Positions 1 through 26,061 are shown, numbered from the stretch's first letter. The stretch: DNA of 64,000 bases from Patescibacteria group bacterium (GCA_024654525.1 JANLHI010000021.1:1969-65968), one strand, 5' to 3'. Numbers and translations are program-made. Notes: generated from the sequence alone by a model not told the origin.

Positions 1-99
1 CTAGGCAACTTCTTAAAAACTAATCCAAGAGATACCTGTTATCGCATAAATGCGATGATACGGTAAAACCCGCCGTCGCGAAACGCTATGGCGAGATAA

Positions 100-345
100 A
101 ACCCGCCTGTGTTCATGCGAACTATGGCGAGGCGAAGTGGGGAAGCGGGTGAGAATCCCGCACAGTGCCGCTACGGTGAAGTCCCGCCTGTGTTCAATAG
201 AACTTCGGCGAGACACAAGTCCGAGTACCACTCTTTGGAATGTTTCGTGTGCGTCCCCGCATTCTGCGGGGCAAGTCTCTCGAGCAAGAGGCAAGCCTGT
301 TTGTCGAACAGACTCCCCCTTGCGGTGGGTTTTTTATTTCCGAAT
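100..345 (+). promoter_or_regulatory. Candidate cobalamin (AdoCbl) riboswitch with expression platform, upstream of the 398..2257 gene
   Basis: Core AGUGGGGAAGCGGGUGAGAAUCCCGCACAGUGCCGCUACGGUGAAG (about 137-182) matches the conserved cobalamin-riboswitch core (GGGAA..GGUGA.AAUCC..ACAG; compare T. tengcongensis AGUGGGAAAGUGACGUGAAAUUCGUCCAG). A B12-box-like AAGUCCGAGUACCACUC follows at about 218-234. A strong hairpin CCCCGCAUUCUGCGGGG (256-272) and a GC-rich segment plus U-run (about 312-336) precede the start codon at 398. Downstream genes are B12-related. Confidence 0.6.
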
Positions 346-397
346 AAATTCCCCATCGTAGTATTAATTATAAAAAGCGGATGATCCGCTTCGTCTC

Positions 398-2257
398 ATG
401 AAAAAAAAGTTATTCGCGAGTATTCTACTCGCCACGTTCCTTGCAAACACGTTTGTAGCAGCAATTCCCGTGCACGGCGACACAAACACTTCAATTACTT
501 ATCTGAAGTCAAAGCCACTCACCCCATGGACCATCATGGCGCTTATCGCCGCGGGAGAATCTCCCTCGCTTGATTCGCTCAAAACTCTCCCTGAAAACGG
601 AAAGGCGATTGATTATGAAGCGCCTATTCTCGCCATTACTTCCGCCAATAAAGATCCCCGCACATTCGGAAGCGAAGATTATGTCGCAAAACTCAAAGGA
701 TTTTCGGATGGCATTCAACTCGGCGACACCACGATTTTGAATGATGACGTATTCGGTATTCTTGCGCTTGTCGCCGCAGGAGAACCGAAGGACGGCGACA
801 TAATTTCGCAGACGACGCAGTTCCTCCGTAACCATCAGAATGGCGATGGAGGATGGGGATATGCCGTGGGTGGTACGAGCGATACTAATACCACCGCCGC
901 CGCAGTCATGGCGCTTGCCTCAACGGGAATGCCCTCGAGCGAAGAGCCGATAGTGAACGCGCTTGAATACCTGAAAGCCGCGCAGAACGGCGATGGGGGG
1001 TTTCCTTACGACCCCAAGAGCGAATGGGGTACGGATTCGGACTCATCTTCGGACGCATGGGTAATCATGGCAATTAAGAGCGCAGGGCAAGATCCTTCCT
1101 CGTGGCAAAAGGAAGGCGGAACACCCATCTCCAACCTTGCTACGTTTGAAGACGAATCGGGGTTTTATCTCTATCAACCCGGCAACTCCGAAGATTCATT
1201 CAGCCCTACCACTACTTCATACTCACTGATTGCTCTCGCGGGAAAATTCTTTCCGCTCCATACCATCACACCCACAACACCCACGTCCGTACATTATTCC
1301 TACAGAATAGAAGGAAAAACGCAGGGGCTTTGCGCGGGAGAATCGGACGGACTCAAAGCAATTGATTCGATACCGACCGCCGGCGATGCATGCGGTATTA
1401 CCTATCATATCCAAGAATCCTCACTTGGTTCCTATGTCGACGAAATTGCTACGGAAAAAGCGGAAGGTTCTTCGGGATGGATGTATACCGTGAACAATGA
1501 ACCTCCGAGTGTCGGCGCAAGCGACTACACATTGTCCGCAGGGGATGGAATAATTTGGTATTACGGCGTGTATGGCGACGAACTCCTTCGTCTTACATTG
1601 AATACCACAAGTACTTCTGCAGGCACTCCCATTTCGGGCACCGTGGCAACCTACCATGCACATGCATGGACTCCCCTTGCAGATGCGGTAGTACGCACCA
1701 CGACCGCGTCCACCACCACCGACGGCACGGGAACATTTTCACTCACGCTTCCCGAAGGGATACACTCCCTTGTCGCGGAAGCTCCTCGGCATATTCGCAG
1801 TAATATGGAGAAGATAATGGTGGGCACTCCCGACGCCACTGCAATCGAGCTCAGCGTCACTATTCCCGAATCCCAAAATACAGGAGGGGGTAACACGGGG
1901 GGGAACGGTGGGACTGGAGGAGGCGGTTCTTCTCAAGGCGTATCGATTATGGTAGAAACAGGCACGGAAGATGGGGGCCTTGATTTCGGTTCGCTTGGGA
2001 TAGGCGCCTCACAAAAGAAAACTATTACTATAAAGAATCGTGGCAATAAAAAACTTGCCATGCAGGCGGTAGTCGGCGGGGATGACATATTCAGAAGCTA
2101 TCTCTTTCTTGACGGAAAAACATGGCGCGTATTCCATGTTGCAGTGGATCCCGGAGCATCAGTCGCACCCGAAACATCGCTTCGCATCCCATCCGCGTAT
2201 TCCGCAGCAGGTATAAAAAAGGGATCACTTGTATTCTGGGCGGTGCCTACGGAATAA
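398..2257 (+). CDS. Secreted transcobalamin/intrinsic-factor-like cobalamin-binding protein: N-terminal signal peptide, prenyltransferase/squalene-cyclase-type alpha/alpha-toroid repeats, DUF4430-like beta domain, beta-sandwich domains and a Gly-rich linker
   Basis: Signal peptide MKKKLFASILLATFLANTFVAA. Repeated QNGDGGWGY / QNGDGGFPY (QxxDGGW/F prenyltransferase-alpha/alpha-toroid repeat motif). Segment SGWMYTVNNEPPSVGASDYTLSAGDGIIWYYG resembles the DUF4430 (transcobalamin beta-domain-like) signature. GGGNTGGNGGTGGGGSS linker. Sits directly downstream of the candidate B12 riboswitch. Confidence 0.6.
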   Translation: MKKKLFASILLATFLANTFVAAIPVHGDTNTSITYLKSKPLTPWTIMALIAAGESPSLDSLKTLPENGKAIDYEAPILAITSANKDPRTFGSEDYVAKLKGFSDGIQLGDTTILNDDVFGILALVAAGEPKDGDIISQTTQFLRNHQNGDGGWGYAVGGTSDTNTTAAAVMALASTGMPSSEEPIVNALEYLKAAQNGDGGFPYDPKSEWGTDSDSSSDAWVIMAIKSAGQDPSSWQKEGGTPISNLATFEDESGFYLYQPGNSEDSFSPTTTSYSLIALAGKFFPLHTITPTTPTSVHYSYRIEGKTQGLCAGESDGLKAIDSIPTAGDACGITYHIQESSLGSYVDEIATEKAEGSSGWMYTVNNEPPSVGASDYTLSAGDGIIWYYGVYGDELLRLTLNTTSTSAGTPISGTVATYHAHAWTPLADAVVRTTTASTTTDGTGTFSLTLPEGIHSLVAEAPRHIRSNMEKIMVGTPDATAIELSVTIPESQNTGGGNTGGNGGTGGGGSSQGVSIMVETGTEDGGLDFGSLGIGASQKKTITIKNRGNKKLAMQAVVGGDDIFRSYLFLDGKTWRVFHVAVDPGASVAPETSLRIPSAYSAAGIKKGSLVFWAVPTE

Positions 2258-2275
2258 TCGCGAATCACTCATCTC

Positions 2276-2824
2276 ATGCTCAATACTACAAATAGCCGCC
2301 TTATACTCGGAGCAATTGCTGCAATTGCGCTACTTATTATTCCGTTTACTTTTGTGCGCGCAATCGGCATTACCGCACTTCCCTCCGAAATTACGATAAC
2401 AGTGTCGCGAGGAGAAAATACCACAGCCCACCTTACCGTTCAGAATCCCTCGCGCGAGGTCGCGATATTTGAAGTCTATCCCGATGACCTTGATACCATG
2501 ATCATACCGATCCCCTCGCGGTTTACGCTTGAATCAGCCGAAACGCGCGTAATAGAAATAAAACTTATCCCAAAACAAGAAGGAGTATTTACCACCAATC
2601 TTTCTGTTCTTGCACGTCCCATTACTGACCCACTTCTCGGCATTGGAAGCGGTCTTAAGATTCCCATCAATATCACCGTCACCGCACCACGCACTATGTC
2701 GCTTGCATCAATAATTTCCCTCTCATCACCTCTGGGAATCATTGTTGCGCTTCTTGCAACACTTGCAGTATGTATTTATGCGTTTCATCGTGCACTTAAA
2801 AAAAGAACCGCAGAGCGGTATTAA
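2276..2824 (+). CDS. Hypothetical membrane-anchored protein (N-terminal TM/signal, beta-rich domain, C-terminal TM anchor); likely co-transcribed with the 398..2257 gene
   Basis: 18-nt gap after the upstream gene, same strand. Hydrophobic N-terminus LILGAIAAIALLIIPF and C-terminal TM LGIIVALLATLAVCIYAF followed by basic residues. Confidence 0.4.
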   Translation: MLNTTNSRLILGAIAAIALLIIPFTFVRAIGITALPSEITITVSRGENTTAHLTVQNPSREVAIFEVYPDDLDTMIIPIPSRFTLESAETRVIEIKLIPKQEGVFTTNLSVLARPITDPLLGIGSGLKIPINITVTAPRTMSLASIISLSSPLGIIVALLATLAVCIYAFHRALKKRTAERY

Positions 2825-2847
2825 TTGACACCTCTTTATAAAGCCGT

Positions 2848-3306
2848 TTATTGCGAAATACGTCCGAGAAGAGGAATGCGTGAAAACGCACGTTCCAATC
2901 CCCACATATGTCCCGCGCGCAACGCAGAGAGAAGGAGTAGCGCCGCGGCATAGATAATATGTTCATCCACAATATACGAGTGCGCGTTCGGATAGGGAAA
3001 CTCAAGAATCGGAAGATAGTAGAGCACCATCATCAACGCACCGAGGATACCACTCCACCGCACCCCGATGCCTAAAATAAGAGATGCTCCGATAAGGGTT
3101 AATCCCCACTCGTTTATAAAGTTGGTAAACGGAAGCAATGCGGGGCTCGCAAGTGCGTTATAGAATCCAGGAAATGTTTTTGCAGATTGAAGATATCCAA
3201 CCGCAGACCATGCAGGATTCATTATTTTGACAATACCTGCGTAGAAAAACATCCACCCCGTTGTGATGCGAAGTAGAAACACCGCTATTTTCGCATTACG
3301 TCTCAT
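2848..3306 (-). CDS. DoxX family membrane protein
   Basis: 152 aa, four hydrophobic segments, N-terminal motif AVFLLRITTGWMFFYAGIVKI typical of DoxX/DoxD-like proteins. Confidence 0.55.
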   Translation of the reverse strand: MRRNAKIAVFLLRITTGWMFFYAGIVKIMNPAWSAVGYLQSAKTFPGFYNALASPALLPFTNFINEWGLTLIGASLILGIGVRWSGILGALMMVLYYLPILEFPYPNAHSYIVDEHIIYAAALLLLSALRAGHMWGLERAFSRIPLLGRISQ

Positions 3307-3317
3307 TATATGAATAA

Positions 3318-3899
3318 TTATACCACAATCTTCTTATCCACACCACCCACAATTGCCGGTTCGAGCGCTCTATTTACCACCACCCACCGATAGATGAGCG
3401 GACTAAGTAATGCACTTAATGTTACGTTTCCCGCAAGGTGCATAAGGGTAAACGGAATCTGACCCACAAGCGCCCCCATAAAGGGCTGACCAAAGAGAAG
3501 AGGCCCCATGGTTAGTCCTGTAATTGCATCATAGAGAATCGTGCCTCCTGCGGCGTATACTGCATAGTAGAGAGGGCTATTATTTTTCGAACGGAGAAAC
3601 CACGCCGCACTCATGCCCACTATGCCGTACGCGGTCGCGGTAAGCAAAGTCCATATTCCTCCGGTTCCCGTCACTAAATCGTAGAGGATAATATTCCCCG
3701 CCCCGAAGAGGAATCCCACAAGATATCCGTGATGTTTTGCAAACGGCATCACGGTAGCCATGATTGGCTCCACATTCGGCGCACGGAAAGGTATGAGGCG
3801 CAATATAAGACAAAATATAATCCCCACACCATACTTCAGCGCATCGCTTCGAAAGCGAAACCGGTGAAATTGTTTTTTTGCTGTTTCCATGTTCATCAT
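3318..3899 (-). CDS. Small polytopic membrane protein, possible ECF S-component/BtuM-like vitamin (cobalamin?) permease
   Basis: About 190 aa with five to six TM helices and Gly-rich helix motifs (GFLFGAGNIILYDLVTGTGG; AAGGTILYDAITG). Lies immediately upstream of cobO, within the B12 locus. The function is inferred from context only. Start adjusted to the internal Met to avoid overlapping cobO. Confidence 0.35.
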   Translation of the reverse strand: MMNMETAKKQFHRFRFRSDALKYGVGIIFCLILRLIPFRAPNVEPIMATVMPFAKHHGYLVGFLFGAGNIILYDLVTGTGGIWTLLTATAYGIVGMSAAWFLRSKNNSPLYYAVYAAGGTILYDAITGLTMGPLLFGQPFMGALVGQIPFTLMHLAGNVTLSALLSPLIYRWVVVNRALEPAIVGGVDKKIVV

Positions 3900-3903
3900 T
3901 ATA

Positions 3904-4425
3904 TCAGTATTCGACTCCTTTTGCCCCCTGCACTCCTTCCGCATATGGATGTTTTATTTCTCTCATTTCAGTAACTAAATCCGCTACTTCAATAAAACTC
4001 AAGGGAGCGTCTCTTCCAGTAAAAATAAGATGCTCCACTTTTGATTCCGCTTTTATTCTCACCACATTAACCTCTTGTTCGGTGATAAGCCCAAGTGCTA
4101 TCGCATTATGCACTTCATCAAGTATTACTGCATCCCACTCTCCGGAAAGGATTTCCTTTTCCGCATAGGCAAGCGCTTCTCTTGCCGCACGCGCATGTTC
4201 TTCGCGAGGCAAAGTATCGCCCAAAATTCCCACAAACCCCTTCCCCATTTTCACTATTTTAAATTTCGGCGCAAGCAATTTTGAAGCATCATCCTCTCCG
4301 CTTCGCCACGGGCCTTTGATAAACTGCACCATGAGCACCCTCTTCCCGTCGCCCACGAGCCGCATCGCCTGTCCCAATGCCGCCGTAGTCTTACCTTTCC
4401 CATTACCGGTGAAAATAAGAAACAT
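3904..4425 (-). CDS. cobO: Cob(I)alamin adenosyltransferase (CobO/BtuR/CobA family, PduO-unrelated)
   Basis: N-terminal P-loop-like FTGNGKGKTTAALGQAMRLVGDG and overall similarity to CobA/BtuR ATP:corrinoid adenosyltransferases. Start chosen at MFLIFTGNGKGKTT; the ORF track starts 7 codons earlier at 4446. Confidence 0.8.
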   Translation of the reverse strand: MFLIFTGNGKGKTTAALGQAMRLVGDGKRVLMVQFIKGPWRSGEDDASKLLAPKFKIVKMGKGFVGILGDTLPREEHARAAREALAYAEKEILSGEWDAVILDEVHNAIALGLITEQEVNVVRIKAESKVEHLIFTGRDAPLSFIEVADLVTEMREIKHPYAEGVQGAKGVEY

Positions 4426-4531
4426 ACTCGTCACACTTATGACCAATAACCTATAATAGAATTCAATCTCATGAAATTTATTGAACTTGGTTATTAGTTA
4501 TCAGTATTCCGTGTTATAAGTTTCCGTGCAG

Positions 4532-7252
4532 TCATGAACACGAACCGCTTGCAGTGCCACATTGAATACACGTCTTACAGCTTCCAGTCTGAATTAACAT
4601 TCCTCCGCATGTACGGCACACACTATCCGCAAATATAATTTTTGCCGGCGAAGATTCGTTATTTACCACTTCAACCTTTTTCACTTCAGGCATTGACGGA
4701 ATGTTTTCTACTCCATCAAGCTCCTTATGAGGCACTTTTATGCCCAACCCCTCAAGCTCATTCGCGGAAAGGAATCGTACCGCAAGATATCGAAACACAT
4801 AATCAGTAATTGATGTCGCAACTTGCACATCCTGATTCTTTGTAAAACCGGCGGGTTCATATCGGCCATAAGAAAATTTCTGTACCAACGTTTTAAGCGG
4901 TACACCATACTGACACGCAATCGACACCATAATCGCGAATGCATCCAAAAGCCCCGCGAGTGTCGATCCTTGTTTCGACATCCTGATAAAGATTTCTGCA
5001 AGGCCTCCCTCTTCAAACATGCTGTAGGTAAGATATCCTTCGTGTCCTCCGATCGAAAACTTGTGAGTCTCGGATGCACGCGTTGCAGGTAGGTGTCGGC
5101 GAGCGGGCTTCTGCTCTTTTTTCTTTTGATTCCCCGAGCCCGTGAAAAGCGGCTGTGCAGCCTTCGAACCATCGCGATACACCGCGAACGCTTTCAATCC
5201 CATCTTCCAGCCCATCATAAACGCCTGTTCCACTTCCTCCACCGTTGTCTCGTGTGTCATATTGAACGTCTTCGATATCGCACCGGAAAGGAACGGTTGC
5301 ACCGCCGCCACCATTTTCACGTGTCCCTTCCACGAAATAGAACGCGCTCCATTCGAAGGTTTTATTGCACAATCAAAAACGGGAAGGTGCTCCTCCTGAA
5401 ATCCCGGAGCTCCTTCTATGGTTCCCTGTTGCTCAATGTAAGCCACGATTCCCGCACGCGATTCATCGTCATATCCAAGTTTTACCAATGCTCGATCCAC
5501 TACATTATTTACGAATTTCATCATTCCTCCTCCCACAAGACGCTTCATTTTTACCAATGCAAATTCCGGTTCGATTCCCGTGGTTACACAATCCATCATC
5601 AATGCAATGGTACCCGTTGGGGCAAGAACCGATACTTGCGAATTTCGCACACCCCAGCGCCGTGCATCTGCAACCGCCCCACTCCATGCTTCGTGAGCGG
5701 CGCTCATGATGCCGTTATCGAAGGAATAGACATCGTCAACATTATCAATCGCATCGCGATGCATAGAAAGCACCTTAAGCATTGCATCTCTGTTTTCCTG
5801 ATACCGAGAAAAAGGATGCATCACTCGCGCAATCTGTGCGGAAAAACGATACGCTTCTCCCGTCATAAGCGCCGTAATTGCCGCAGCCGAGCTCCGCGCT
5901 TCATCCGAATCATATGGAATTCCGAGTGACATCAACAGTGCGCCAAGATTTGCATATCCCAATCCCAGTTGTCGAAAATCGTGTGTATTTTTTCCTATCC
6001 GTGACGTGGGGTACGATGATCCGTCCACTAAAATTTCCTGCGCAAGAATCATGATATCAACCGTACGGCGAAATCCTTCCACATCAAACCCTCCCTCCGG
6101 TGTGAGATAGTGAAGCAGATTGATTGATGCAAGATTACATGCGGAATTATCCACATGCATATATTCACTGCACGGATTCGATGCATTAATACGTCCGGAG
6201 TTTGGACACGTGTGCCAACGGTTAATAGTGGTATCGAACTGCATTCCCGGATCACCACAACTCCATGCTGACTCTGCAATCGCCCGCATCATATCGCGCG
6301 CTTTATACGTGTCCGCAACCGCTCCATTCGTTACTTGCTTCGTGCGCCACTCGTCATCCTGTTCCACCGCTTTCATAAACGCATCGGAAACACGCACGCT
6401 ATTGTTCGCATTTTGATATTGAATGGAATTCCATGCCGAGTCATTCAAATCAAACATATCGTACCCTCCGTCCATGAGCGCCTTTACCTTTTTTTCTTCC
6501 TCCGACTTCACATGAATAAATTTCATGATATCGGGGTGATCGACATTCAAAATCACCATTTTTGCTGCACGTCGCGTAGAACCGCCCGAGGCGATCATGC
6601 CCGCTACGGAATCCGCCCCGCGCATAAAAGATACCGGTCCCGATGAGAAACCTCCATGCGACAATGTTTCTCGTGTTGAGCGGAGCGCCGAGAGATTTAT
6701 TCCCGCTCCAGAACCACGCTTAAAAATCAAACCTTCCGTAGTAATCCAATCAAGGATAGATTCCATCGAGTCCTCCACGGAAAGAATAAAACACGCCGAG
6801 CATTGTGGTTTTGCATCAAGTCCTAAATTAAACCACACCGGGGAATTGAACGCCGCACGCTGATGCAACAATACATAGGTGAGTTCTTCGGCGTACACAT
6901 CGGCATCGTGTGCATTCGAAAAATAGTGATAACGAAGCCCCCACTCACGCACCGTCTTCACTACACGTCCAATCATTTGCTTAATCGAAGATTCCCGTTC
7001 TGTGGATCCCACTCGCCCGCGAAGATATTTCGAACCTGCGATTTCGGCAGCGTTTTCTGACCACACTTCGGGAAATTCCAACTCGCGCTCTTCCCTTGCT
7101 CCATTCGTACCTCTCACTGTTACCCTGCGCGTTTTCCACGCAACTTCATCGAAAGGATGCACTCCTTCGCGAGTAAAATACCTCTCCGTAAATGACTTTC
7201 CGCTTTCACGATGCGCTTTTGTATTTATTGCCAAAGGCGATGTACGTTCCAT
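4532..7252 (-). CDS. nrdJ: Adenosylcobalamin-dependent (class II) ribonucleotide reductase
   Basis: 906 aa. RNR catalytic-core motifs (NPCSEYMHVDNSACNLASINL, active-site Cys/Asn/Glu region). C-terminal Cys-rich tail CRTCGGMLIQTGSCKTCIQCGTASGSC. No NrdB partner nearby. cobO is adjacent. Confidence 0.85.
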   Translation of the reverse strand: MERTSPLAINTKAHRESGKSFTERYFTREGVHPFDEVAWKTRRVTVRGTNGAREERELEFPEVWSENAAEIAGSKYLRGRVGSTERESSIKQMIGRVVKTVREWGLRYHYFSNAHDADVYAEELTYVLLHQRAAFNSPVWFNLGLDAKPQCSACFILSVEDSMESILDWITTEGLIFKRGSGAGINLSALRSTRETLSHGGFSSGPVSFMRGADSVAGMIASGGSTRRAAKMVILNVDHPDIMKFIHVKSEEEKKVKALMDGGYDMFDLNDSAWNSIQYQNANNSVRVSDAFMKAVEQDDEWRTKQVTNGAVADTYKARDMMRAIAESAWSCGDPGMQFDTTINRWHTCPNSGRINASNPCSEYMHVDNSACNLASINLLHYLTPEGGFDVEGFRRTVDIMILAQEILVDGSSYPTSRIGKNTHDFRQLGLGYANLGALLMSLGIPYDSDEARSSAAAITALMTGEAYRFSAQIARVMHPFSRYQENRDAMLKVLSMHRDAIDNVDDVYSFDNGIMSAAHEAWSGAVADARRWGVRNSQVSVLAPTGTIALMMDCVTTGIEPEFALVKMKRLVGGGMMKFVNNVVDRALVKLGYDDESRAGIVAYIEQQGTIEGAPGFQEEHLPVFDCAIKPSNGARSISWKGHVKMVAAVQPFLSGAISKTFNMTHETTVEEVEQAFMMGWKMGLKAFAVYRDGSKAAQPLFTGSGNQKKKEQKPARRHLPATRASETHKFSIGGHEGYLTYSMFEEGGLAEIFIRMSKQGSTLAGLLDAFAIMVSIACQYGVPLKTLVQKFSYGRYEPAGFTKNQDVQVATSITDYVFRYLAVRFLSANELEGLGIKVPHKELDGVENIPSMPEVKKVEVVNNESSPAKIIFADSVCRTCGGMLIQTGSCKTCIQCGTASGSCS

Positions 7253-7263
7253 AGTTTGTTGAG

Positions 7264-7593
7264 TTATAGCGGACTTACTACCGACGCCGACTTACTCCAT
7301 AAATCCTTGAAAATCCGACACGGCTCGACAATCCGGGGATCTGTAATTCTGTAATATATATTCAAACCGTCACGTCTCGTCAGCACCGCCCGCGCATAAC
7401 GCAAACGCGCAAGATGTTGCGACATATTCGCCTTGGAAACATCGAGGGTCTTTGCAAGCTCATTAACAGATGCCTCGTGCACTTTGAGAATATTTAAAAT
7501 TTCAAGCCTCTTCGGATTTGCAAGAATTTTATAGAGAAACGCATTGCGCTTATACACACTTTTTGGAAACGGTGACATGACTTTTGTTCTCAT
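7264..7593 (-). CDS. ArsR/SmtB family metalloregulatory transcriptional repressor
   Basis: HTH segment LANPKRLEILNILKVHEASVNELAKTLDVSKANMSQHLARLRYARAVLTRRDG. Start set at the internal Met (MRTKVMSPF); the upstream part of the ORF is probably not coding. Confidence 0.7.
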   Translation of the reverse strand: MRTKVMSPFPKSVYKRNAFLYKILANPKRLEILNILKVHEASVNELAKTLDVSKANMSQHLARLRYARAVLTRRDGLNIYYRITDPRIVEPCRIFKDLWSKSASVVSPL

Positions 7594-7880
7594 AATTGCG
7601 AAATTTCTTAACTTGCTTCTCCAGCATACTCCCCGCCCATCACTCCTGTAAAGCGAAAAAATTATCCACAACATACGACCATACCCAAGCGTAATGCGCA
7701 ATCGGAAAAACCCTATATTTTCCCTCGTGATACCTCTTTTTCCAACCAATTTCAATGCTTCTTACCCAGTAGCGTCATCTAAACCTCCTCTTTTTGAGCA
7801 TTATCGCGCGTATGGCAACAATCATAACTGAAATAAACTTATCCTCTCCGTATAAAGAGAATAATCCCTTGCGTAGACCC

Positions 7881-10469
7881 TTATGCTTTTTTTAATCGTA
7901 ACGAATTCAAAACAACACTTATACTGCTAAACGCCATTGCTGCTGCGGCAAAGATTGGACTAAAAAGAATTCCAAAAAAGGGATAGAGGATTCCGGCGGC
8001 AACGGGAATAAAAGCGATGTTATAGAAAAACGCCCAGAAAAGATTTTGCTTTATTACTCTCATCGTGCGTTTCGAAATATTTATCACTTCGGGAATCAAC
8101 ATCAAATCTCCTCTCATCAGCGTGATATTCGCCGATTCCATGGCAATATCCGTACCTTCGCCCATAGCGATACCAATATTCGCTTGAGTAAGAGCCGGCG
8201 CATCATTAATACCATCACCAATCATTGCCACAATTTTTCCTTGATTTTGAAGCTCGCGTACTTTTTCCGACTTCTTATCGGGTAATATTTCGCTCATCAC
8301 CTTGTCTATACCCACCTGTGTCGCAATAGCACGAGCGGTGCGGTCATTGTCTCCGGTAATCATCCAGACATCTATATTATTTTTCTTGAGAGTTTGTATT
8401 GCTTCGATTGATTCTCTTTTTAATACATCAGCCACCGCAAGCGCCCCCTTGATTTTTTTATCAACTATAAGAATCATTACCGTCTTGCCTTCATTTTCAA
8501 GACTACTGATATTGTCTTCGTAAGGAGAAATATCGAGACCAATATCTACAACCAAAGCTCGGTTTCCTAAATATGCCTCAACCCTTTGATTTTGAATTTG
8601 CAAAAATCCCTTCAAACCCTTTCCGGAAATAGCCTTAAAATCTTCCAGCTTGTGAAGCTTAATCTTCTCTTTTATCACTTCATCCGCGATTGCCTTATCA
8701 AGAGGATGTGATGATTTTTGATCAAGACTTGCGGCATACTGCAGTATAGCCTGCGCCAAAGGATGCTCCGACCTCTGCTCTAATGAAGCGGCGAAGGTAA
8801 GAACTTCTACTTGGCGACCATTATTGAACGCGACAATATCGGTTAATTGTGGTTTTCCTTCCGTAAGCGTGCCTGTTTTGTCTAAAACCACCGTGTCTAT
8901 TTTATTGGCAATTTCAAGCGAAGTGGCATCTTTGATTAAAATACCTTTATTTGCCGCACTCCCCGAAGAAACCATAATAGCCATAGGAGTTGCAAGACCG
9001 AGAGCGCAAGGACACGCAATTATCAAAACCGCTACAAAGTTTACAAGCGCGAAAGTAAATGCGGGGCCAAAAAAGAACCACGCGATAAAAGTAATAATTG
9101 CAATAACAAAGACCGCAGGAACAAAATACGAAGAAACGAGGTCTGCTAAACGCTGAATAGGCGCTTTGGAACCTTGAGCTTCTTCCACCATTTTAATTAT
9201 TTGCGAGAGCACCGTTTCTTTTCCGACTTTGGTAGCTTGGAAAGTGAAAGTTCCAAATTTATTTATCGTACTGCCGATAACCGCGCCCCCAATCGTCTTA
9301 TGCACAGGCATTGATTCTCCGGTTACCATTGATTCGTCAACTTCCGAATCCCCCTCGGTTATTTTCCCGTCAACAGGGATCCTCTCCCCCGGACGCACAA
9401 TGATTAAATCCCCTACCACCACATCGGAAATCGATATCTCAACTTCTTTTTCCTCTCTTAATACTTTTGCGGTCTTAGGTTGTAACCCAATAAGTTTTTT
9501 GATGGCTTCCGAAGCTCTTCCTTTCATCAACACTTCAAAATATTTTCCCAACAGAATCAAAACAATAATGATTGCCGAAGTATCAAAATAGACCGCCGGA
9601 GTTATTCCTTCTTTTATGAAAAAAGAGGGGAAAACAGTAACTACTACACTATAAAAATATGCAGCGAGTGTCCCCACGGCAACCAGAGTGTTCATATCGG
9701 CAGTCCGATATTTTACTACAAGTTTGAGTCCGCTATAAAACTGCCAACCGACCCAAAACTGCACCGGTGTGGTTAACACAAGAAGCACCCAATTATTGCC
9801 TAAAATTTTAGGAATGAAAGAGAATAAATCAGAGAAACTACCCAAAAATATAAACGCAGAAAGAATAGCGCCGATTACGAGTTTGCGTTTTAATATCTTT
9901 GCCTGATTTTCTCTTTCAAGTTTTTCCTTATCTATAACTTCTTCCTTGATGCCTTCTTCTTTGATTGGTGTGTAACCCGCATCAGTAATAACTTTTAAAA
10001 TTTCACTGGTATTTATCAAAGATGAATCAAAAACCACCTTGGCTCGCTGGTTGGAAAAATCAACATCTGTATTTTTGATACCTGATAACTTTTTTATGGC
10101 ACCCTCCACAATCATGGCGCAATGAGGAGAATCCATACCTATTACTTTCATCGAAACCGTTTCAGTATTTCCATTTGCATCACCAAAACCACGATGAGGC
10201 GAATCAACGAGTATCTCTTCTTTTTTGTCGGTAGTCATATATGCGCCTTTTTCTTTCTCACTCACTTCAAGATGATACCCTACTGATGCAACAATTTTTG
10301 CAAGTTCCGACTCGGAAATAACACTGTTATCAAATTCAATCAATGCGGATTCCGAAGCAAAATTAACCGAGGCTGAATGTACGCCTTCCGTTTTCAAAAG
10401 CACACGCTCGATTGTCGCAACACAACTTGCGCAATGCATTCCATTAATTGAGTATGTCTTTTTAATCAT
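7881..10469 (-). CDS. copA: Copper-translocating P1B-type ATPase
   Basis: Two N-terminal HMA domains (GMHCASCVATIE and GMDSPHCAMIVE), CPC motif (IIACPCALGLATP), DKTGTLT phosphorylation site, GDGINDAPAL hinge motif. Confidence 0.9.
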   Translation of the reverse strand: MIKKTYSINGMHCASCVATIERVLLKTEGVHSASVNFASESALIEFDNSVISESELAKIVASVGYHLEVSEKEKGAYMTTDKKEEILVDSPHRGFGDANGNTETVSMKVIGMDSPHCAMIVEGAIKKLSGIKNTDVDFSNQRAKVVFDSSLINTSEILKVITDAGYTPIKEEGIKEEVIDKEKLERENQAKILKRKLVIGAILSAFIFLGSFSDLFSFIPKILGNNWVLLVLTTPVQFWVGWQFYSGLKLVVKYRTADMNTLVAVGTLAAYFYSVVVTVFPSFFIKEGITPAVYFDTSAIIIVLILLGKYFEVLMKGRASEAIKKLIGLQPKTAKVLREEKEVEISISDVVVGDLIIVRPGERIPVDGKITEGDSEVDESMVTGESMPVHKTIGGAVIGSTINKFGTFTFQATKVGKETVLSQIIKMVEEAQGSKAPIQRLADLVSSYFVPAVFVIAIITFIAWFFFGPAFTFALVNFVAVLIIACPCALGLATPMAIMVSSGSAANKGILIKDATSLEIANKIDTVVLDKTGTLTEGKPQLTDIVAFNNGRQVEVLTFAASLEQRSEHPLAQAILQYAASLDQKSSHPLDKAIADEVIKEKIKLHKLEDFKAISGKGLKGFLQIQNQRVEAYLGNRALVVDIGLDISPYEDNISSLENEGKTVMILIVDKKIKGALAVADVLKRESIEAIQTLKKNNIDVWMITGDNDRTARAIATQVGIDKVMSEILPDKKSEKVRELQNQGKIVAMIGDGINDAPALTQANIGIAMGEGTDIAMESANITLMRGDLMLIPEVINISKRTMRVIKQNLFWAFFYNIAFIPVAAGILYPFFGILFSPIFAAAAMAFSSISVVLNSLRLKKA

Positions 10470-11459: not shown

Positions 11460-11891
11460 TTAGCGACAACAACCGCCTGCACTCACATCATCCGACTTTT
11501 CCGACACGACACGATCAATAGCTTTCTTCAACTTCTCTTCCGCAATACGTGCAATTTCTTTCAATGCAAAATTATCAATCATTTCCATCGCTACCGTGGG
11601 AAGAATTGTTGCCACCCGCACCGTACCTTTTTCCTCATACACAATGATATTGCACGGCAAAAATAATCCTATTTCCTTCTCCGCAATAAGTGCATTGTAT
11701 GCAAGTTGCGGGTTGCATGCACCGAGAATTACGTACCTATCAACATCAACATTTAATTTCTTTTTGAGTGTTGCACGCACATCAACTTCGTGCAACACTC
11801 CGAAACCCTCACTCGCAAGCTCTTCTTTTATACGAGTAACCGCCTCTTCAAAAAGAATCTTTGCAACGCATGTATGACTGTATTTCATCAC
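11460..11891 (-). CDS. DUF302 domain protein
   Basis: 143 aa, characteristic DUF302 layout (FGVLHEVDVRATLKKKLNVDVDRYVILGACNPQLAYNAL). DUF302 genes are frequently found in heavy-metal resistance operons. Confidence 0.6.
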   Translation of the reverse strand: MMKYSHTCVAKILFEEAVTRIKEELASEGFGVLHEVDVRATLKKKLNVDVDRYVILGACNPQLAYNALIAEKEIGLFLPCNIIVYEEKGTVRVATILPTVAMEMIDNFALKEIARIAEEKLKKAIDRVVSEKSDDVSAGGCCR

Positions 11892-11893
11892 TG

Positions 11894-12583
11894 TTATGCA
11901 AGTAAATCTTTCTTCTTTTCCTCGAACTCTTTCCTGTCAATTTCTCCTTTTGCGTAACGCTCTTTTACTATCTCAAGCGCCAATCCTTTGCGATGCACAT
12001 TACTTCCCGAAACACTTGTCGCCCATCGCACAATCATAACGATGCCTGCAATGATAAGCGCCCAAAAAAGAAACATTACAATCCACCCCGATGTCCCCAT
12101 ATGCCCAAAACCATATCCATATCCCATCATGTTATATACCGGATATCCCCACGGAGCCGACCCTACTCCGTTTTTTACTGTCTTTACGTTTTCAAGAGAA
12201 TTAGATGCATTTCCTCCCCATAAACCCATCATTCCGTATCCATCACTTCCTTCATATACCGCATCGGGATTACACCCAGAAAACCGCTCTCCCATCGTCT
12301 CATGCATTGCTCGAAGCCCTTCTGCACCAGCTCTATCCCTTACCGATTGATCCATCGCTTCATGCGCATTTCCCATCATTCCATCCATGAAATACTCACC
12401 CAGATTCTCAAAATCCTCATCCCGAAAATTCGCACACTGCGTTTTTCCAGATTGCAATTCCTTCCATAAACTCTGTCCCGCAACAACCGTCGCATCTTCC
12501 CCGACGGCTTGCACAGAAATTCCCGCTACCATAACCGCCACTGCAAACATCATAACCCATACCATTCCCTGAAATCGTTTCAT
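11894..12583 (-). CDS. Secreted/membrane Met-, His- and Gly-rich putative copper-binding protein with a C-terminal SHOCT domain
   Basis: Signal/TM region, Met-rich motifs (MDGMMGNAHEAM; GYGMMGLWG; YNMMGYGYGFGHMG), a TM segment, then a SHOCT-like tail LEIVKERYAKGEIDRKEFEEKKKDLL. Confidence 0.55.
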   Translation of the reverse strand: MKRFQGMVWVMMFAVAVMVAGISVQAVGEDATVVAGQSLWKELQSGKTQCANFRDEDFENLGEYFMDGMMGNAHEAMDQSVRDRAGAEGLRAMHETMGERFSGCNPDAVYEGSDGYGMMGLWGGNASNSLENVKTVKNGVGSAPWGYPVYNMMGYGYGFGHMGTSGWIVMFLFWALIIAGIVMIVRWATSVSGSNVHRKGLALEIVKERYAKGEIDRKEFEEKKKDLLA

Positions 12584-18441: not shown

Positions 18442-19477
18442 TTATATATCGGCACTTTCAATCTCTGCTTCGATAAACATGCTCAAATCACCCTCAAGCA
18501 CTTTATTTACCTGCGAGGTCTCGACTTCCGTACGATGGTCTTTCACCAATTGATACGGATTCAGTACATACGACCTAATTTGATTTCCCCACTCCGGCTT
18601 CACTTTGATACGAATATTTGAAAGCTCTTCTATATGATGTTTCTCCATAAGTTGCACTATCTTCGCCTTCAAAAGACGCAGGGCGTACTCGCGGTTTTGC
18701 TGTTGAGAACGCTCGACGCGGGAGCTTACCGCAATACCGGTAGGAATGTGGACAATACGCACCGCAGTCTCTACTTTATTTACGTTCTGCCCTCCCGGCC
18801 CACCGGCGCGCGAGAATTCAAATTTTAAATCTCCTTCGGGAATCACCACTTTCGACTCCTCTACGGGAGGAAGATCGGGTACCACTTCCACAAGCGCAAA
18901 TGCGGTATGACGAAGTTTTTTCGGGGAAAACGGGGAAATACGCACAAGCCGATGCACTCCGGATTCTTTTTTCAGATATCCGAAAGCATATTGCCCTTTT
19001 ACTTCAATCATTCTGCTACGGGGGTTATCATCCACAATTCGCGTTTTCCATTCCTGTAACTCGGCATACTTTATATACATTTCCGCAAGCATCCGCGCCC
19101 AATCCTCTGCATCCTCTCCTCCCGCACCGGGATAGAACGAAAGTATCGCCGATTGCGTGTCATATTTTCCTTTAAATAATTCCTTGAGTTCTAAAAAGCG
19201 AAATTTTCTTTTTATATCGTAATAAAGACTTTCATCGAATAATGATTCAAGTTTTATGATTCCTTCTTCTACTTCCTCATATTGATCCGTGAGATCGCGA
19301 AGTATTCCGAGTTGTTTAATCTTCTCGTCGGCAATCGTTCGATTACCCCAAAACTCAGGCTCACTTATCGCCTTTTCAATCGCCTCTATCTCCTTTTTTT
19401 TAGCCGTTACGTCAAAGCCGCCCGCCTAACCGGCGGGCTTCGATTGCAAATTCCTCTAGCTGCGCTTTGAAATCCAT
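18442..19477 (-). CDS. prfB: Peptide chain release factor 2, expressed via a +1 programmed ribosomal frameshift
   Basis: Frame 0 (from ATG at about 19477) encodes MDFKAQLEEFAIEARRLGGRL followed by TGA within CTT TGA C (about 19411-19417). The +1 frame continues DVTAKKKEIEAIEK... into the listed ORF 18442..19092, which contains the GGQ motif (SRAGGPGGQNVNK) and an SPF-type RF2 region. Confidence 0.85.
19411..19417 (-). other. prfB +1 frameshift site CTT TGA C
   Basis: The canonical RF2 autoregulatory frameshift heptamer, located at codon 21-22 of prfB. Confidence 0.8.
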
Positions 19478-22071: not shown

Positions 22072-24336
22072 CTAAAGTTTCTTTATCTCACCCAATACCT
22101 CCTCAACATTCCCTGTATGCACGAGAAAGAAATGCTGGTCTTTACCGAGTTTCGCCCATAGTTCACCAATCTCAATCTTGTATGCCGTGTCTTCATTGCT
22201 CACGCGATCGCCGCCTTTCCACTCAAGCGCGATAATCGCGCCTTTATTGGTGACCGCGATAAAGTCGGGGTAAAACTTTCCTTTCTTCCAACCTTGGATA
22301 AAGAACGGGTCCACCTTCTCGCGACTGCGCACCCAGTATTTAATGTTCGCGAGGGTGTCCAAGTCAAGACGTTGAACAAACTCGTGTTCCTCCTTGTTTA
22401 GCTTGTCAATTTTCTCGTAGTAGTTTCGATTGAACTCTTGCGGCACGGCGCGTTTTAGCGTGATGGTGTCGGGAAATGCCTTAAACGGCTTTGTAGAAAC
22501 CTTCCCTGCTTTCATCTTGGTGTCGAACTGTGTCTTCGCATACGCTTCGAGAACAGATTCGATGTGCTGGCTCAAACGATCCGCGAGCACGAAGCGATTT
22601 ACCGAAAGCTCCGCAAGCGAATGTGTTTTGAGTTGATGGTCAATCGCCTTGTCCAAGAAGCGCACCTTGTCCGACTTCTCAAGAATCGTGAAGCGCAGTT
22701 TTTTATCGAGCCATTGTACAAGCTCCTCTTTGGTAAGGTTTTTGTCCGAGTATTTCAACTTGAGCGACATTTGTACTCCTCGTATCCACGCATCATCTTC
22801 CCGGATGTCAATAATCGCGCGACCATCACTGTCATAATGCACTTCAAAATCAAATTTCGGGTCTTGCTTCGCAAGCTCAAAATCACTGCCGATCAAATCC
22901 TCAAAGGTGAGCTTGTCGCCATCAAGCGCCATGAGTGGCACTTTGAGGATCCCGGACACTGCCTTCTTTGCTTCAAGTTCGTATACAGCATCTTTCTTTT
23001 CAGCGCTTACGATGTCTGCTCGGCTGTATCCGTTGTCTTCAAGTCCGGAGATAATCTGGTTCGCCGCCTCGTTAAAGTTTCGCGCCGAGGCAAACACATA
23101 GCTTCGGTTAAAATCTTCGTCGGTTTTCCGCTTCGCATTCGGCATGCGGATAATGCGCCCGATAATCTGTTCCACGGCAATTTTCGAGCCGAGGTTCGCA
23201 ACAGAGACGAGTACATACGCAAACGCGCAGTCCCATCCTTCCGCAAGCGCGTTGACGGTGATGATGTAGCGTATTTTGCAGGTTTTGCTAAAGAGGTTCA
23301 CGCCTTCAAGATCGTTCTTATCCGATGTCTTGATAGCGATTTCTTCTTCGGGAATTTTTCGCTCCAAAAGAAAAGCTTTTATCTCCTCCACGGTAACGGT
23401 CTTGTTCACCGAGCTTTTTGGCTGTGCCTGCAAGAGTGCTATCGGCCGGATGTACTCGTTCTTTATTTTCTTCGCTCCTTTTTCAAGTTCAATGCGCTTT
23501 TCAATACCGTTCGTGAGCGCGTTTTGCCACTGCGCCGCACTTTCAAGCACAATAGGAATTTTGACCATCTGCTCATCTTTCAATTCAGACGCATGTACCT
23601 CAAAGAGAATATTGCTTTCCTTGAGCGGCGTGGCAGTGTACTCAACAACAAATGCGGGGTTGAGACCGTTTATAGTTTCAAGAGACAAATCCGAAGTCGC
23701 CTTATGTCCCTCGTCGATGACTATAATCGGATTATTCAAACGAATGGTGTTTGCGAGCGAGTTAATGACCGTGCCTTCCTCGTCGCGCTCTAAATATTCC
23801 GGCTCCTCAATATTTTCAAAATGATCCATCAACGAGCCGTTCTCTTGGTACACCTTGTATTTGCCTTGCTTCTGCTTTTTCTTATTGAACGCCGCAAAGC
23901 TGGCTACGATAATGCAAAGATTATCGCTCACATCCGCCTTGCGGATAGCAAGAGCTTCTTCGTTTGAGAATACACGCACATGGTTGTCATACGATTCATC
24001 ATGAATCTGGCGGTGCGGGTCTTTGCGGTCTTTCAGTTTTTTGAGCGTTTGCGTTTTAATTGCTTCGGAAGGTGTAAACCACAACACAACGCCACGATCC
24101 ATCTTGTCTTGAAGTGCTTTGCTCATTATTTTCTCAACCGCGTGACACCCGACGAGCGTCTTGCCTCCACCGGTCGGTATTTTAATGCAGACAAACGGCA
24201 CTTCGCCAAATGCCTCCGCTTTGTACGGGTTTTCGGTGATGCCCATAAAGGCATACCTCAACCCGACTTTCCGAAGTTCGACCAGAAAGTTCTCAAGCGT
24301 TTCTAAACTATTCTTTTGGTATCGTTTTAGTTGCAT
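22072..24336 (-). CDS. res: Type III restriction endonuclease, Res subunit (SF2 helicase plus nuclease)
   Basis: Helicase motif I PTGGGKT and motif II DEGH. 754 aa. Lies immediately downstream of the mod gene on the same strand. Confidence 0.8.
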   Translation of the reverse strand: MQLKRYQKNSLETLENFLVELRKVGLRYAFMGITENPYKAEAFGEVPFVCIKIPTGGGKTLVGCHAVEKIMSKALQDKMDRGVVLWFTPSEAIKTQTLKKLKDRKDPHRQIHDESYDNHVRVFSNEEALAIRKADVSDNLCIIVASFAAFNKKKQKQGKYKVYQENGSLMDHFENIEEPEYLERDEEGTVINSLANTIRLNNPIIVIDEGHKATSDLSLETINGLNPAFVVEYTATPLKESNILFEVHASELKDEQMVKIPIVLESAAQWQNALTNGIEKRIELEKGAKKIKNEYIRPIALLQAQPKSSVNKTVTVEEIKAFLLERKIPEEEIAIKTSDKNDLEGVNLFSKTCKIRYIITVNALAEGWDCAFAYVLVSVANLGSKIAVEQIIGRIIRMPNAKRKTDEDFNRSYVFASARNFNEAANQIISGLEDNGYSRADIVSAEKKDAVYELEAKKAVSGILKVPLMALDGDKLTFEDLIGSDFELAKQDPKFDFEVHYDSDGRAIIDIREDDAWIRGVQMSLKLKYSDKNLTKEELVQWLDKKLRFTILEKSDKVRFLDKAIDHQLKTHSLAELSVNRFVLADRLSQHIESVLEAYAKTQFDTKMKAGKVSTKPFKAFPDTITLKRAVPQEFNRNYYEKIDKLNKEEHEFVQRLDLDTLANIKYWVRSREKVDPFFIQGWKKGKFYPDFIAVTNKGAIIALEWKGGDRVSNEDTAYKIEIGELWAKLGKDQHFFLVHTGNVEEVLGEIKKL

Positions 24337-24340
24337 ATAA

Positions 24341-25873
24341 TTAATATACTTTCACCTCGTACGGAATCTGCTTAAAGACGATGTTATGAGCGGCAAGTGT
24401 GTCGTCGTCCAATAGACATCGGTCTGCGTAGACTATCTTCTTTTTATCAGAATCTCCAATCGTCTTGAGTGTCGCCTTGTCGAGCTCATTTTTGTTCTTT
24501 CCCTTGTAGAGAAGATAGTATTCGGTGTCGCCATACTCGCCGATATAGTTGCCACTGATTTTCTTTGGGTCAATATTTGTTTGCGTTTCGGTGAAGTAGA
24601 TATAAGTGGCAAATTGTTTAAAATCGCAGGTTTCTTCGATCTGTCCATCCTCGTTGAAAAGCGGCTTGTCTAACTCGCAATACTCAAAGCCGTCATTGTA
24701 GTCGTACTTTTTGATAGCCCGCTTCACGCGCTCGGCAGTAATGTCTCTTGCAACCTTATCTTCCATTTCCACGAGGATAAATTTCCGGCTTCCACCGTCT
24801 TCTTTGTTTAAGTCCAAAACAGCTTGCGCTGTTGTACCGGAGCCTGCAAATGAGTCCAAAATGAGAGAGTCTTTTTGCGAAGCTAGTTCAAGAATTCTTT
24901 TGATCAAACCGACGGGTTTTGGCGTCTCAAAAATACCTCCATCAAAAAGATTAATAATCTCATTCTTACCTTCCTTGTTTGTCGCAACGTCTGTCCAAAT
25001 GTTGCTTGCCGGAATACCCGTGCTCTCGTGCGCATAAATCACGCGCTGAGGTACACCGTCGCCTTTCATGCCAAAATAAATCTTGCCCTCACTCAGTAGA
25101 CGTTTATAGCTTTCCTCCGGGTATGCCCATTCTCTTTTGTGTTTTTTGCCAGAAGGCGTAACTATTTCGTAAGTATATCCACCACTTTTATGCCCCTTTG
25201 TTGTGGCTATGGGTACCGGTCTCCACTTTCCGTTTGGAAATTCTTTTGTCGGCGGTTTGTATGCAGTTTCAATATAAGCTTCGCTGAGAGAAAGCAAATT
25301 AAGTTGGGCGATTTTGGAACGAGCATACACAACGATATATTCTGCCTTTACCGTGATATTTCTACTATCGTTTGAGCTCTCTTTCTTCCGTTGCCATGTG
25401 ACGGTCGTAACGTGATTTTCTTCAAGAAAAATCTCATCCATAGCACCACGAAGATTGCAGTGCTCATTTTCATCAACAGAAATAAATATAAATCCGTCGT
25501 CTGTTAGTAAATCGCGCAAAAGTTTCAGGCGCGGATACATCATGCAAAGCCACTTGTCGTGACGCGTTAAATCTTCCGACTCTTTTCCGACAACTTTGCC
25601 AAGCCACTGTTTTATCTTTGGTGAGTTTACTTTGTCGTTATAAACCCACCCTTCGTTGCCGGTATTGTACGGAGGATCAATGTAAATACATTTAACTTTG
25701 CCGACATAGTGTGGCATCAATGCTTTAAGCGCTTCCAAATTGTCGCCGTGCACTATGAGGTTTTTTGAATGCTCGCCAACAGACGCACCTTTTACTTTCT
25801 TGAACAACTTAAAAGGAACCTCCTTATCGTGGTTTACAACTGCATCTTTACCTATCCAGTTTAGCGTTGCCAT
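24341..25873 (-). CDS. mod: Type III R-M DNA methyltransferase, Mod subunit (N6-adenine or N4-cytosine MTase, DPPY type)
   Basis: Motif IV CIYIDPPYNTG and motif I LILDSFAGSGTTAQAV; 510 aa. Confidence 0.85.
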   Translation of the reverse strand: MATLNWIGKDAVVNHDKEVPFKLFKKVKGASVGEHSKNLIVHGDNLEALKALMPHYVGKVKCIYIDPPYNTGNEGWVYNDKVNSPKIKQWLGKVVGKESEDLTRHDKWLCMMYPRLKLLRDLLTDDGFIFISVDENEHCNLRGAMDEIFLEENHVTTVTWQRKKESSNDSRNITVKAEYIVVYARSKIAQLNLLSLSEAYIETAYKPPTKEFPNGKWRPVPIATTKGHKSGGYTYEIVTPSGKKHKREWAYPEESYKRLLSEGKIYFGMKGDGVPQRVIYAHESTGIPASNIWTDVATNKEGKNEIINLFDGGIFETPKPVGLIKRILELASQKDSLILDSFAGSGTTAQAVLDLNKEDGGSRKFILVEMEDKVARDITAERVKRAIKKYDYNDGFEYCELDKPLFNEDGQIEETCDFKQFATYIYFTETQTNIDPKKISGNYIGEYGDTEYYLLYKGKNKNELDKATLKTIGDSDKKKIVYADRCLLDDDTLAAHNIVFKQIPYEVKVY

Positions 25874-25990
25874 GTTTAAAAATCGAGTCTTTGAGTTTCA
25901 TTTTACCTTAACTCGCCAAAAAACGCTCACGTTTTATCTGCCGAGTCCTTGACAAACCGTGTTAAATATCCCGCAACCTTTTCCATAGTG

Positions 25991-26019
25991 TTGACTTTTT
26001 ATTGTACATAGTCTAGGAT
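25991..26019 (+). promoter_or_regulatory. Candidate sigma70-type promoter of the higB cassette (TTGACT, 17-nt spacer, TAGGAT) with a TGTACA palindrome in the spacer
   Basis: Sequence inspection only. A TTGTTgggAACAA inverted repeat lies just downstream and could be an operator. Confidence 0.3.
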
Positions 26020-26061
26020 AGAGTTGTTGGGAACAAATTATTAGTATGAAATACTTCCACA

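Follow-up and report, generated by a model that had tools for sequence, protein, structure and literature searches.

A riboswitch-led locus of a Patescibacteria genome as a probable module for vitamin B12 salvage and use

CbrT and CbrS were reportedly first predicted by Rodionov in 2009. In Lactobacillus delbrueckii, CbrT is encoded in the cluster nrdJ-cbrS-cbrT-pduO; it binds cobalamin and cobinamide at nanomolar affinity (PMC5997447) and transports both with the energy-coupling factor (ECF) module (PMC5997447; PDB 6FNP). In L. rhamnosus, the gene of a DUF4430 protein adjoins that of a B12-dependent reductase, and CbrS is equated with a DUF4430 protein in indirect statements only (PMC9963975). 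Here, a 64,000-nucleotide (nt) stretch of a Patescibacteria (Candidate Phyla Radiation, CPR) genome, referred to as the window, with coordinates counted from its first letter, was found to carry the CPR counterpart of this Lactobacillales cluster, a known module and not a new principle. The locus comprises a cobalamin riboswitch, a transcobalamin-like secreted protein (the binder) with a membrane-anchored partner, and an operon for a class II ribonucleotide reductase (RNR), a corrinoid adenosyltransferase and a CbrT-like S-component. It is likely that these two convergent transcription units together form a module for the salvage and use of B12 (cobamide).

The window locus and the Lactobacillales cluster both bring together genes for a class II RNR, a small S-component and a corrinoid adenosyltransferase, in a host that is a B12 auxotroph or, for the window, presumably one. 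They differ in that the adenosyltransferase of the window is of the CobO type, that an ArsR-family regulator lies within the cluster and that the binder is a large protein with toroid, SLBB and immunoglobulin (Ig)-like parts in a riboswitch-controlled unit of its own. Burroughs et al. (2007, PMC1796856) described secreted bacterial fusions of SLBB, toroid and Ig domains and predicted a role in B12 scavenging. As in those proteins, the binder begins with a signal peptide, carries DUF4430/SLBB after its toroid and has extra Ig folds, and its host presumably scavenges B12. Those described in 2007 belonged to Firmicutes, planctomycetes and archaea, and their genes usually lay in CbiO/CbiQ operons, whereas the window binder belongs to a CPR host, has a riboswitch in front and no CbiO/CbiQ neighbour. 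The Bacteroides proteins BtuG, BtuH (DUF4465) and BtuJ (PMC8941943, PMC13398666) are likewise riboswitch-regulated, high-affinity surface binders that feed a transporter; however, their beta-propeller and DUF4465 folds are unrelated to toroid plus SLBB, and their outer-membrane TonB system was not seen in the window. In the literature searched, no paper was found that ties Patescibacteria to cobalamin riboswitches, ECF transporters or B12-dependent RNR clusters.

The features of the locus are listed in Table 1. Its closest relatives among the CPR loci compared, L020, L035, L089 and L090, encode binder proteins 62–75% identical to that of the window.

Table 1. Features of the B12 locus, in order of position in the window; bit scores are followed by the model's threshold
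Feature	Position	Strand	Evidence or remark
Palindromic operator-like element, 3' end	1-11 (bases 4-11 = GGCAACTT)	+	Read by eye against relatives
Cobalamin riboswitch aptamer	24-239	+	RF01689, own covariance models, minimum-energy fold, relatives
Extra aptamer hairpins	~38-62, 68-94 (P2), 102-131 (duplicate)	+	Between P1 and core
Conserved aptamer core	135-232	+	Includes 40-nt P6 hairpin, 180-214
Expression platform	240-335	+	Aligned with L020, L035, L089, L090
Intrinsic terminator stem-loop	312-330, U run 330-335	+	Same place as in relatives
Transcobalamin-like secreted protein, 619 amino acids (aa)	398-2257	+	Signal peptide, toroid, DUF4430
Type I membrane protein, 182 aa	2276-2824	+	N-terminal signal/anchor, ASH/Ig-like domain, C-terminal transmembrane helix
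Terminator-like hairpin ending the operon	2798-2819	-	ACCGC-TCT-GCGGT + T run; single terminator
DoxX-family membrane protein, last operon gene	2848-3306	-	PF07681, 29.8 bits (23.6)
CbrT-like ECF S-component, 190-193 aa	3318-3899	-	Six transmembrane helices; start 5 nt past cobO stop codon
CobO/CobA/BtuR-type ATP:corrinoid adenosyltransferase	3904-4446	-	PF02572, 182.4 bits (25.7)
NrdJ, class II (adenosylcobalamin-dependent) RNR, 906 aa	4532-7252	-	NF005122, 1283 bits (859)
ArsR/SmtB-family winged-helix regulator, ~109 aa	7264-7593	-	NF033788, 75.2 bits (55)
Imperfect palindrome AGTTAAGAAATTTCGCAATT, candidate operator	7613-7594	-	Abuts arsR start codon
Promoter-like TTTACA-N18-TATGCT	7652-7623	-	Promoter scan

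In the first unit, on the plus strand, the riboswitch would probably terminate transcription at 312-335 when B12 is plentiful. The secreted transcobalamin-like protein would capture corrinoids outside the cell, and its Ig-like, membrane-anchored partner may hold it at the cell surface. In the second unit, on the minus strand, the S-component, distantly related to CbrT, would carry B12 through the membrane, CobO would adenosylate it and NrdJ would use the adenosylcobalamin (AdoCbl) for deoxyribonucleotide synthesis. This unit has no riboswitch; its control is probably exerted by the ArsR-family repressor, acting on the palindrome at the unit's promoter. In relatives, a palindrome of this kind also precedes the riboswitch of the first unit. 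The original prediction had proposed such a pathway of capture, import, adenosylation and use, and each of these steps gained independent comparative support. Its guess at a symbiotic or episymbiotic lifestyle fits the naming of database proteins identical over the aligned region, which are labelled ‘Patescibacteria group bacterium’ (NUV53_01940 in the case of the S-component).

The strongest evidence came from gene context, which was scored with phmmer in the best 80 of 373 species-level genome loci. A class II RNR was encoded in the flanks of the S-component gene at 56 of the 80 loci, and at 51 the two genes were immediate neighbours on one strand; the RNRs belonged to two subtypes, and the genes were found in either order. 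An adenosyltransferase was encoded at 51 loci as well, being of the CobO type at 12 and of the PduO type at 39. These two types are unrelated, and the exchange of one for the other is the pattern expected if the function, and not the gene family, has been kept, in support of the adenosylation step.

Toroid and DUF4430 genes, often as two separate genes, were found at 21 loci, and at 18 of these, as in the window, a cobalamin riboswitch stood immediately upstream, in line with the proposed capture step. A covariance-model search of 1.3 Mb of CPR flanking DNA gave 26 riboswitches in all. Nineteen were upstream of toroid/DUF4430 genes, and the other seven were directly ahead of stand-alone S-component genes with no RNR nearby (L023, L034, L062, L069, L074, L077 and L083). 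None of the 26 was upstream of an RNR operon, a sensible arrangement for an enzyme that needs B12. This placement of the S-component gene, behind riboswitches or beside the RNR, would be difficult to account for if the S-component did not handle B12.

The S-component matched the six-helix ECF S-component fold; its own sequence gave no Pfam or NCBIfam match, and no CbrT-specific model exists in either collection. More than 1000 homologues were found; those named by taxon were almost all from CPR and several were annotated as ECF S-components, while nothing about function could be read from the names of distant members. When 1.84 billion representatives were searched exhaustively with HMMER, only 277 clusters (50% identity) were returned, so that the family is compact and, where its members carry names, CPR-restricted. 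A profile of 23 members searched against the PDB had one match of weight, 6fnp_A (E 0.014 over 136 positions; next E 0.91). This 182-aa ‘Membrane protein’ of the ECF-CbrT entry was taken, by its length, to be L. delbrueckii CbrT. The family and 6fnp_A have in common the motifs R(L/I)..PNV(E/Q)P, G(V/I)WTL..AY and F.L.H..GN as well as the fold, although the CPR protein is very distant from CbrT and forms a family of its own. A comparison with hhalign gave 91% probability and E 9.5e-7, the CbrT fragment used being drawn from the same HMMER alignment. Plain phmmer with the S-component found no match in the PDB, and CbrT was reached with the family profile only. The membrane permease candidate of the original prediction, and with it the import step, is thus backed by the S-component fold, by CbrT as the PDB match, by the adjacency to the RNR and by the seven riboswitch-led copies.

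Several observations weigh against import of B12 by this protein. By plain HMMER the homology to CbrT is marginal, 17 of the 23 family members weakly match the Pfam model of the riboflavin S-component, and the S-component gene of the window is itself not under a riboswitch. L. delbrueckii CbrT requires the ECF ATPase module (PMC5997447), and such a module was found neither in the 64-kb window nor within 10 kb of any of 88 related loci. Moreover, B12 binding and transport are predicted roles in these CPR families. The riboflavin matches would suit an S-component that imports another substrate (riboflavin, a nucleoside or a precursor), its proximity to the RNR then reflecting general nucleotide metabolism. 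This was judged very improbable, given the seven stand-alone copies directly behind cobalamin riboswitches, the adenosyltransferase of either type that is almost always co-located, and CbrT as the sole PDB sequence match.

A more serious alternative, which is possible though clearly the less probable, keeps the same pathway but has the S-component act as a solitary carrier with no ECF ATPase module, like BtuM and some BioY proteins, and perhaps fed by the binder. Group II S-components are normally encoded apart from their module; that no ECF module was located is a difference from ECF-CbrT. No EcfA or EcfT gene was found in the window by Pfam scans of 43 of its 53 open reading frames of at least 120 aa outside the B12 locus, and a motif scan found no tandem ATP-binding cassette (ABC) ATPase pair in the 1.3 Mb of flanks, a sample too small to conclude absence: the flanks cover ~1–2% of each genome, so this non-detection carries little weight. 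The riboswitch-led S-component copies are monocistronic, as a solitary carrier might be. There is also a precedent in the proteobacterial B12 transporter BtuM (Rempel et al. 2018, PMC6072759), which resembles a solitary S-component and is likewise a small membrane protein of the S-component fold tied to B12 uptake, possibly with no ECF module. It is the looser analogue, however: its cobalt ligand Cys80 in loop 3 has no conserved counterpart in the CPR family, whose 23-sequence alignment contains no invariant or near-invariant cysteine. In addition, solitary L. delbrueckii CbrT gave no growth support or complementation (PMC5997447). Import by a CbrT-like S-component, with or without a module, remains the preferred reading of the operon.

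The cobalamin riboswitch, which the original prediction had placed ahead of the secreted protein at 100-345, was identified both by Rfam and by a covariance model built without the window sequence. When the whole window was scanned with Infernal cmscan, three matches reached the gathering level, namely two tRNAs and the AdoCbl-II riboswitch RF01689 at 122-238 on the plus strand (38.1 bits, gathering score 36.5; E 1.8e-5, or 2.3e-6 when only 1-8000 was scanned). A second family of clan CL00101 also matched the riboswitch and was suppressed as a lower-scoring overlap; a permissive Rfam scan gave no further riboswitch in 1-8000. The first covariance model was made from four Nomurabacteria riboswitches only, the window being left out because MAFFT misaligned its riboswitch owing to the 40-nt P6 insert. 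This model recovered the window riboswitch with 42.6 bits (E 1e-5). The widened, iterated model, with the window sequence in its own training alignment, gave 52.2 bits.

All core motifs were present, with GGGGAAG at 139-145, GGUGAGAAUCC at 148-158, CACAG at 161-165 and the B12-box-like segment AGUCCGAGUACCAC at 219-232. In the long-range P1, 24-31 (UCCAAGAG) pairs with 231-239 (CUCUUUGGA); precisely this helix arose in the minimum-energy fold of 18-245, and an equivalent P1 of altered sequence is found in L020, L035 and L089. The aptamer thus begins near base 24 and not at 100. The P1 assigned by Rfam (122-127/233-238, mismatched) was rejected, as the corresponding CUAUGGCG of L020 is the 3' arm of its P2 hairpin. 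In L020, AAACCCGCC...GCUAUGGCGUGG form this P2 hairpin, between P1 (CCAGAG/CUCUGG) and P3. With P1 at 24-31/231-239, it follows from the leaders of the relatives that the window has P2 (68-94) and a second copy (102-131). L089, a close relative, is without any P2 hairpin, so that the P2 region changes quickly. Across the 26 CPR copies, 91.8% of cells were paired compared to 31–45% in slid controls, 18 of 30 pairs were changed on both sides and none of 500 shuffles matched the covariation score, all in an alignment fitted to the covariance model, which favours the structure.

Compared with described cobalamin riboswitches (RF00174, RF01689), the window element has the same core, B12 box and P3–P6, stands ahead of a gene for B12 acquisition and has an expression platform of the terminator type. 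It differs in that its long-range P1 encloses duplicated hairpins and that, in relatives, a palindrome resembling a protein operator lies just upstream. Two repeats were seen. In D1, 102-131 is 83% identical to 183-212, and the inner part of the duplicate hairpin resembles the aptamer's own P6 hairpin; in D2 (48-74 and 81-107), the region of the P2 hairpin is repeated in tandem (33 nt). The 5' region is therefore no mere repeat cluster, the repeats being real and forming hairpins inside the aptamer.

Upstream of the riboswitch, L089, L020 and L035 have a TTGACA-N17-TATGAT promoter followed by the 28-bp palindrome AGTTGCATAGTTTCGAAAGTATGCAACT. Bases 4-11 of the window (GGCAACTT) equal the end of this palindrome, so the left edge of the window cuts the leader. 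Downstream, the expression platform contains a hairpin at 255-271 and the conserved segment CUCUCGAGCAAGAGGCAA. The conserved strand GCAAGAGG (284-291), a candidate antiterminator, is able to pair with CCCCCUUGC (315-323), the 5' arm of the terminator hairpin. An automated terminator scan missed this terminator because of a mismatch in its stem; at the same position L020, L089 and L090 have a clear hairpin followed by U6, with compensatory changes in the stem. On the strength of the terminator and antiterminator segments, which recur in L089 (75% identical), the element is read as a putative transcription-termination OFF switch, with a ligand-favoured fold that we infer from the sequence. A perfect 7-bp hairpin, AAGCGGA-UGA-UCCGCUU, was also seen at 374-392, 5 nt before the start codon of the binder gene and within a stretch of ~50 nt (roughly 336-397) absent from relatives. 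No Shine-Dalgarno sequence was evident ahead of the binder gene.

The hairpin duplications between P1 and P3, the ~50 extra nt and the hairpin at 374-392 could also be the marks of a decaying copy that no longer regulates. The window riboswitch scored lowest of the three copies scored with Rfam (38.1 against 45–47 bits), its Rfam-assigned P1 was mismatched and it holds both repeats inside the aptamer. However, all core nucleotides are intact, the long-range P1 can form, the terminator and antiterminator segments are those shared with L089, and large peripheral insertions are common in cobalamin riboswitches. Decay was accordingly considered improbable, and a working switch in front of the binder gene is the favoured view.

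The binder consists of a signal peptide, an alpha/alpha toroid (~25-290), a DUF4430/SLBB beta-grasp domain (~295-395) and two Ig-like domains, the C-terminal 220 residues being Ig-like. PF14478 (DUF4430) matched residues 342-389 with 50.3 bits (threshold 23.8). The predicted model of residues 25-400 had a pLDDT (predicted local distance difference test) of 93; in it, the toroid leads into a domain rich in strands (residues 274-367 of the 376-residue fragment). Transcobalamins end in a DUF4430 domain (PMC4350170), and the order of toroid and then DUF4430/SLBB is that of transcobalamin, intrinsic factor and haptocorrin. At the level of sequence the binder differs from these, as the eukaryotic Cobalamin_bind family was not among its Pfam matches at E <= 0.01 and no transcobalamin, intrinsic factor or haptocorrin chain was among its PDB sequence matches. 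The layout, behind a riboswitch, nonetheless agrees with the transcobalamin-like surface protein originally proposed.

Alternatively, the 619-aa protein might be a surface enzyme or adhesin with a toroid like that of terpene cyclases, which happens to be B12-controlled and binds no corrinoid. This was judged improbable: the protein is secreted, no DxDD catalytic motif was seen by eye, and the gene is riboswitch-controlled in the window and at 18 of the 21 loci. In addition, the toroid is always paired with DUF4430/SLBB, either fused or as a neighbouring gene, which is the transcobalamin architecture (PMC1796856, PMC4350170). The protein is therefore better regarded as a putative corrinoid binder. 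The gene directly downstream, for the 182-aa membrane protein, holds the same position in L020, L035, L089 and L090 (140–225 bits); its Pfam matches to ASH and Cep192 were weak. The product may be a membrane dock for the secreted binder.

On the minus strand, the operon has the order arsR-nrdJ-cobO-S component-doxX, with gaps of 11 nt (arsR to nrdJ) and 5 nt (cobO to the S-component gene) and one terminator. Family models established the class II RNR and CobO, both of which had been predicted on this strand. NrdJ further matched TIGR02504 (590 bits, threshold 400), PF08471 (56.9 bits), PF02867 and TSCPD; CobO has the P-loop GNGKGKTT and scored 167.7 bits with TIGR00708, 0.05 below the cut-off of 167.75. 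All genes listed in the original prediction were present, while the arsR-family gene at the head of the operon had been missed. The DoxX gene is real too, but a part for it in the B12 pathway could not be upheld: after the S-component gene, doxX was found only in L020 and, as fragments, in L016, so that it is kept in ~2 of 6 loci of the window type. No cob or cbi genes were found among the surveyed open reading frames (ORFs) of the 64-kb window.

In several loci of the Nomurabacteria type, a gene for a ~157-aa membrane protein with no Pfam match lies near the S-component–RNR operon. It was seen in L001 (2804-3277, minus strand), L003 (7333-7809, minus strand), L048, L055, L073 and L081, being divergently upstream in L001 and L003, and may belong to the system. 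Three loci (L009, L021 and L033) had typical CPR-type S-component clusters, yet their metagenome-assembled genomes bear the labels Woesearchaeota archaeon, Gammaproteobacteria and Pseudobdellovibrionaceae, probably through mis-binning or mislabelling.

The ArsR-family gene is the first of the operon. Homologues of its product (65–167 bits over ~110 aa; all but one at least 110 bits) were encoded at 29 of the 56 RNR-linked loci and in L089, compared to none of the 24 scored loci without an RNR. They were either directly upstream of nrdJ, as in the window, or at the end of an S-component–RNR–PduO(–binder) cluster. The motif DPRIVEPCRIL, at least 90% conserved, holds the one conserved cysteine of the protein; no classical ArsR/SmtB metal site (alpha3 CXC, alpha5 Asp/His) was seen by eye. 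No paper on this ArsR-type regulator was found in the literature searched.

The block of promoter and palindrome AGTTAAGAAATTTCGCAATT (7594-7652) is nearly invariant between the window, L020, L035 and L089; together with arsR it spans 7264-7652 (minus strand) in the window, 6298-6656 in L020, 6295-6653 in L035 and 13358-13716 in L089. At ~24 loci of the other operon type, the S-component gene is closely preceded by a related inverted repeat, AGTTGC-N8-GCAACT. AGTTAAGAAATTTCGCAATT and AGTTGCGAAACTATGCAACT are candidate target sites of the ArsR-like protein. At the 56 RNR-linked loci, gene and site occurred together at 24, the gene alone at 5, the site alone at 2 (both short contigs) and neither at 25 (Fisher p 6.5e-9). 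In 1.19 Mb, 36 of all 45 sites fell within upstream windows of the operons. The protein has the appearance of a repressor dedicated to the RNR/B12 regulon.

In 7881-10469 and 11460-12583 (both minus strand), the window encodes, directly upstream of arsR, an HMA-domain P-type ATPase for heavy metals (two matched stretches), with DUF302 and SHOCT-domain genes after it. The ATPase gene is not adjacent to arsR in L089 and is ~2.5 kb away in L020 and L035, and arsR therefore goes with nrdJ and not with the metal pump.

Elsewhere in the window, Pfam scans of the larger ORFs covered 43 of the 53 ORFs of at least 120 aa outside the B12 locus. DnaE, the alpha subunit of DNA polymerase III (29853-34172, plus strand), contains an intein at approximately residues 614-980 with an endonuclease-like insert (weak Phage_endo_I match). 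The region 22072-29692, with a type III restriction helicase (ResIII) and a DNA methylase followed by genes for an M78/IrrE-type peptidase and a ‘Beta protein’ (PF14350), is a possible defence or mobile island beside the tRNA gene at 29621-29692. An ORF of 216 aa (18442-19092, minus strand) with a partial PCRF domain and an RF-1 domain is probably the downstream frame of a prfB gene with programmed frameshift. At 59411-61768 (minus strand), a 785-aa protein has the unusual pairing of an FGE-sulfatase (formylglycine-generating enzyme-like) domain with an N-acetylmuramoyl-L-alanine amidase domain.

The CPR/Patescibacteria are very hard to grow, and their ties to other cells are known only in part. 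The locus and its ~370 species-level relatives suggest that a sizeable subset of CPR, mainly Paceibacteria/Parcubacteria, forms its deoxynucleotides by a B12-dependent reductase and is obliged to import the vitamin. This dependency is testable and could be put to use through B12-supplemented enrichment cultures, the riboswitch as a reporter of B12 status and expression of the binder and carrier in the E. coli strain deleted for B12 uptake. B12 transport research would gain candidate protein families: a CbrT-like carrier, of interest whether or not it needs the ECF module, a bacterial look-alike of transcobalamin with high-confidence models and, for class II RNR operons, an ArsR-family regulator whose candidate operator is clear. 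More speculatively, many CPR might use a minimal, ATPase-free B12 relay, from surface binder to solitary CbrT-derived carrier, governed by the riboswitch and by a new type of ArsR repressor that senses B12, or a linked redox or nucleotide signal, through the cysteine of DPRIVEPCRIL; we regard this as doubtful. If it were true, the B12 supply of neighbouring cells would be a direct and controllable limit on CPR DNA synthesis.

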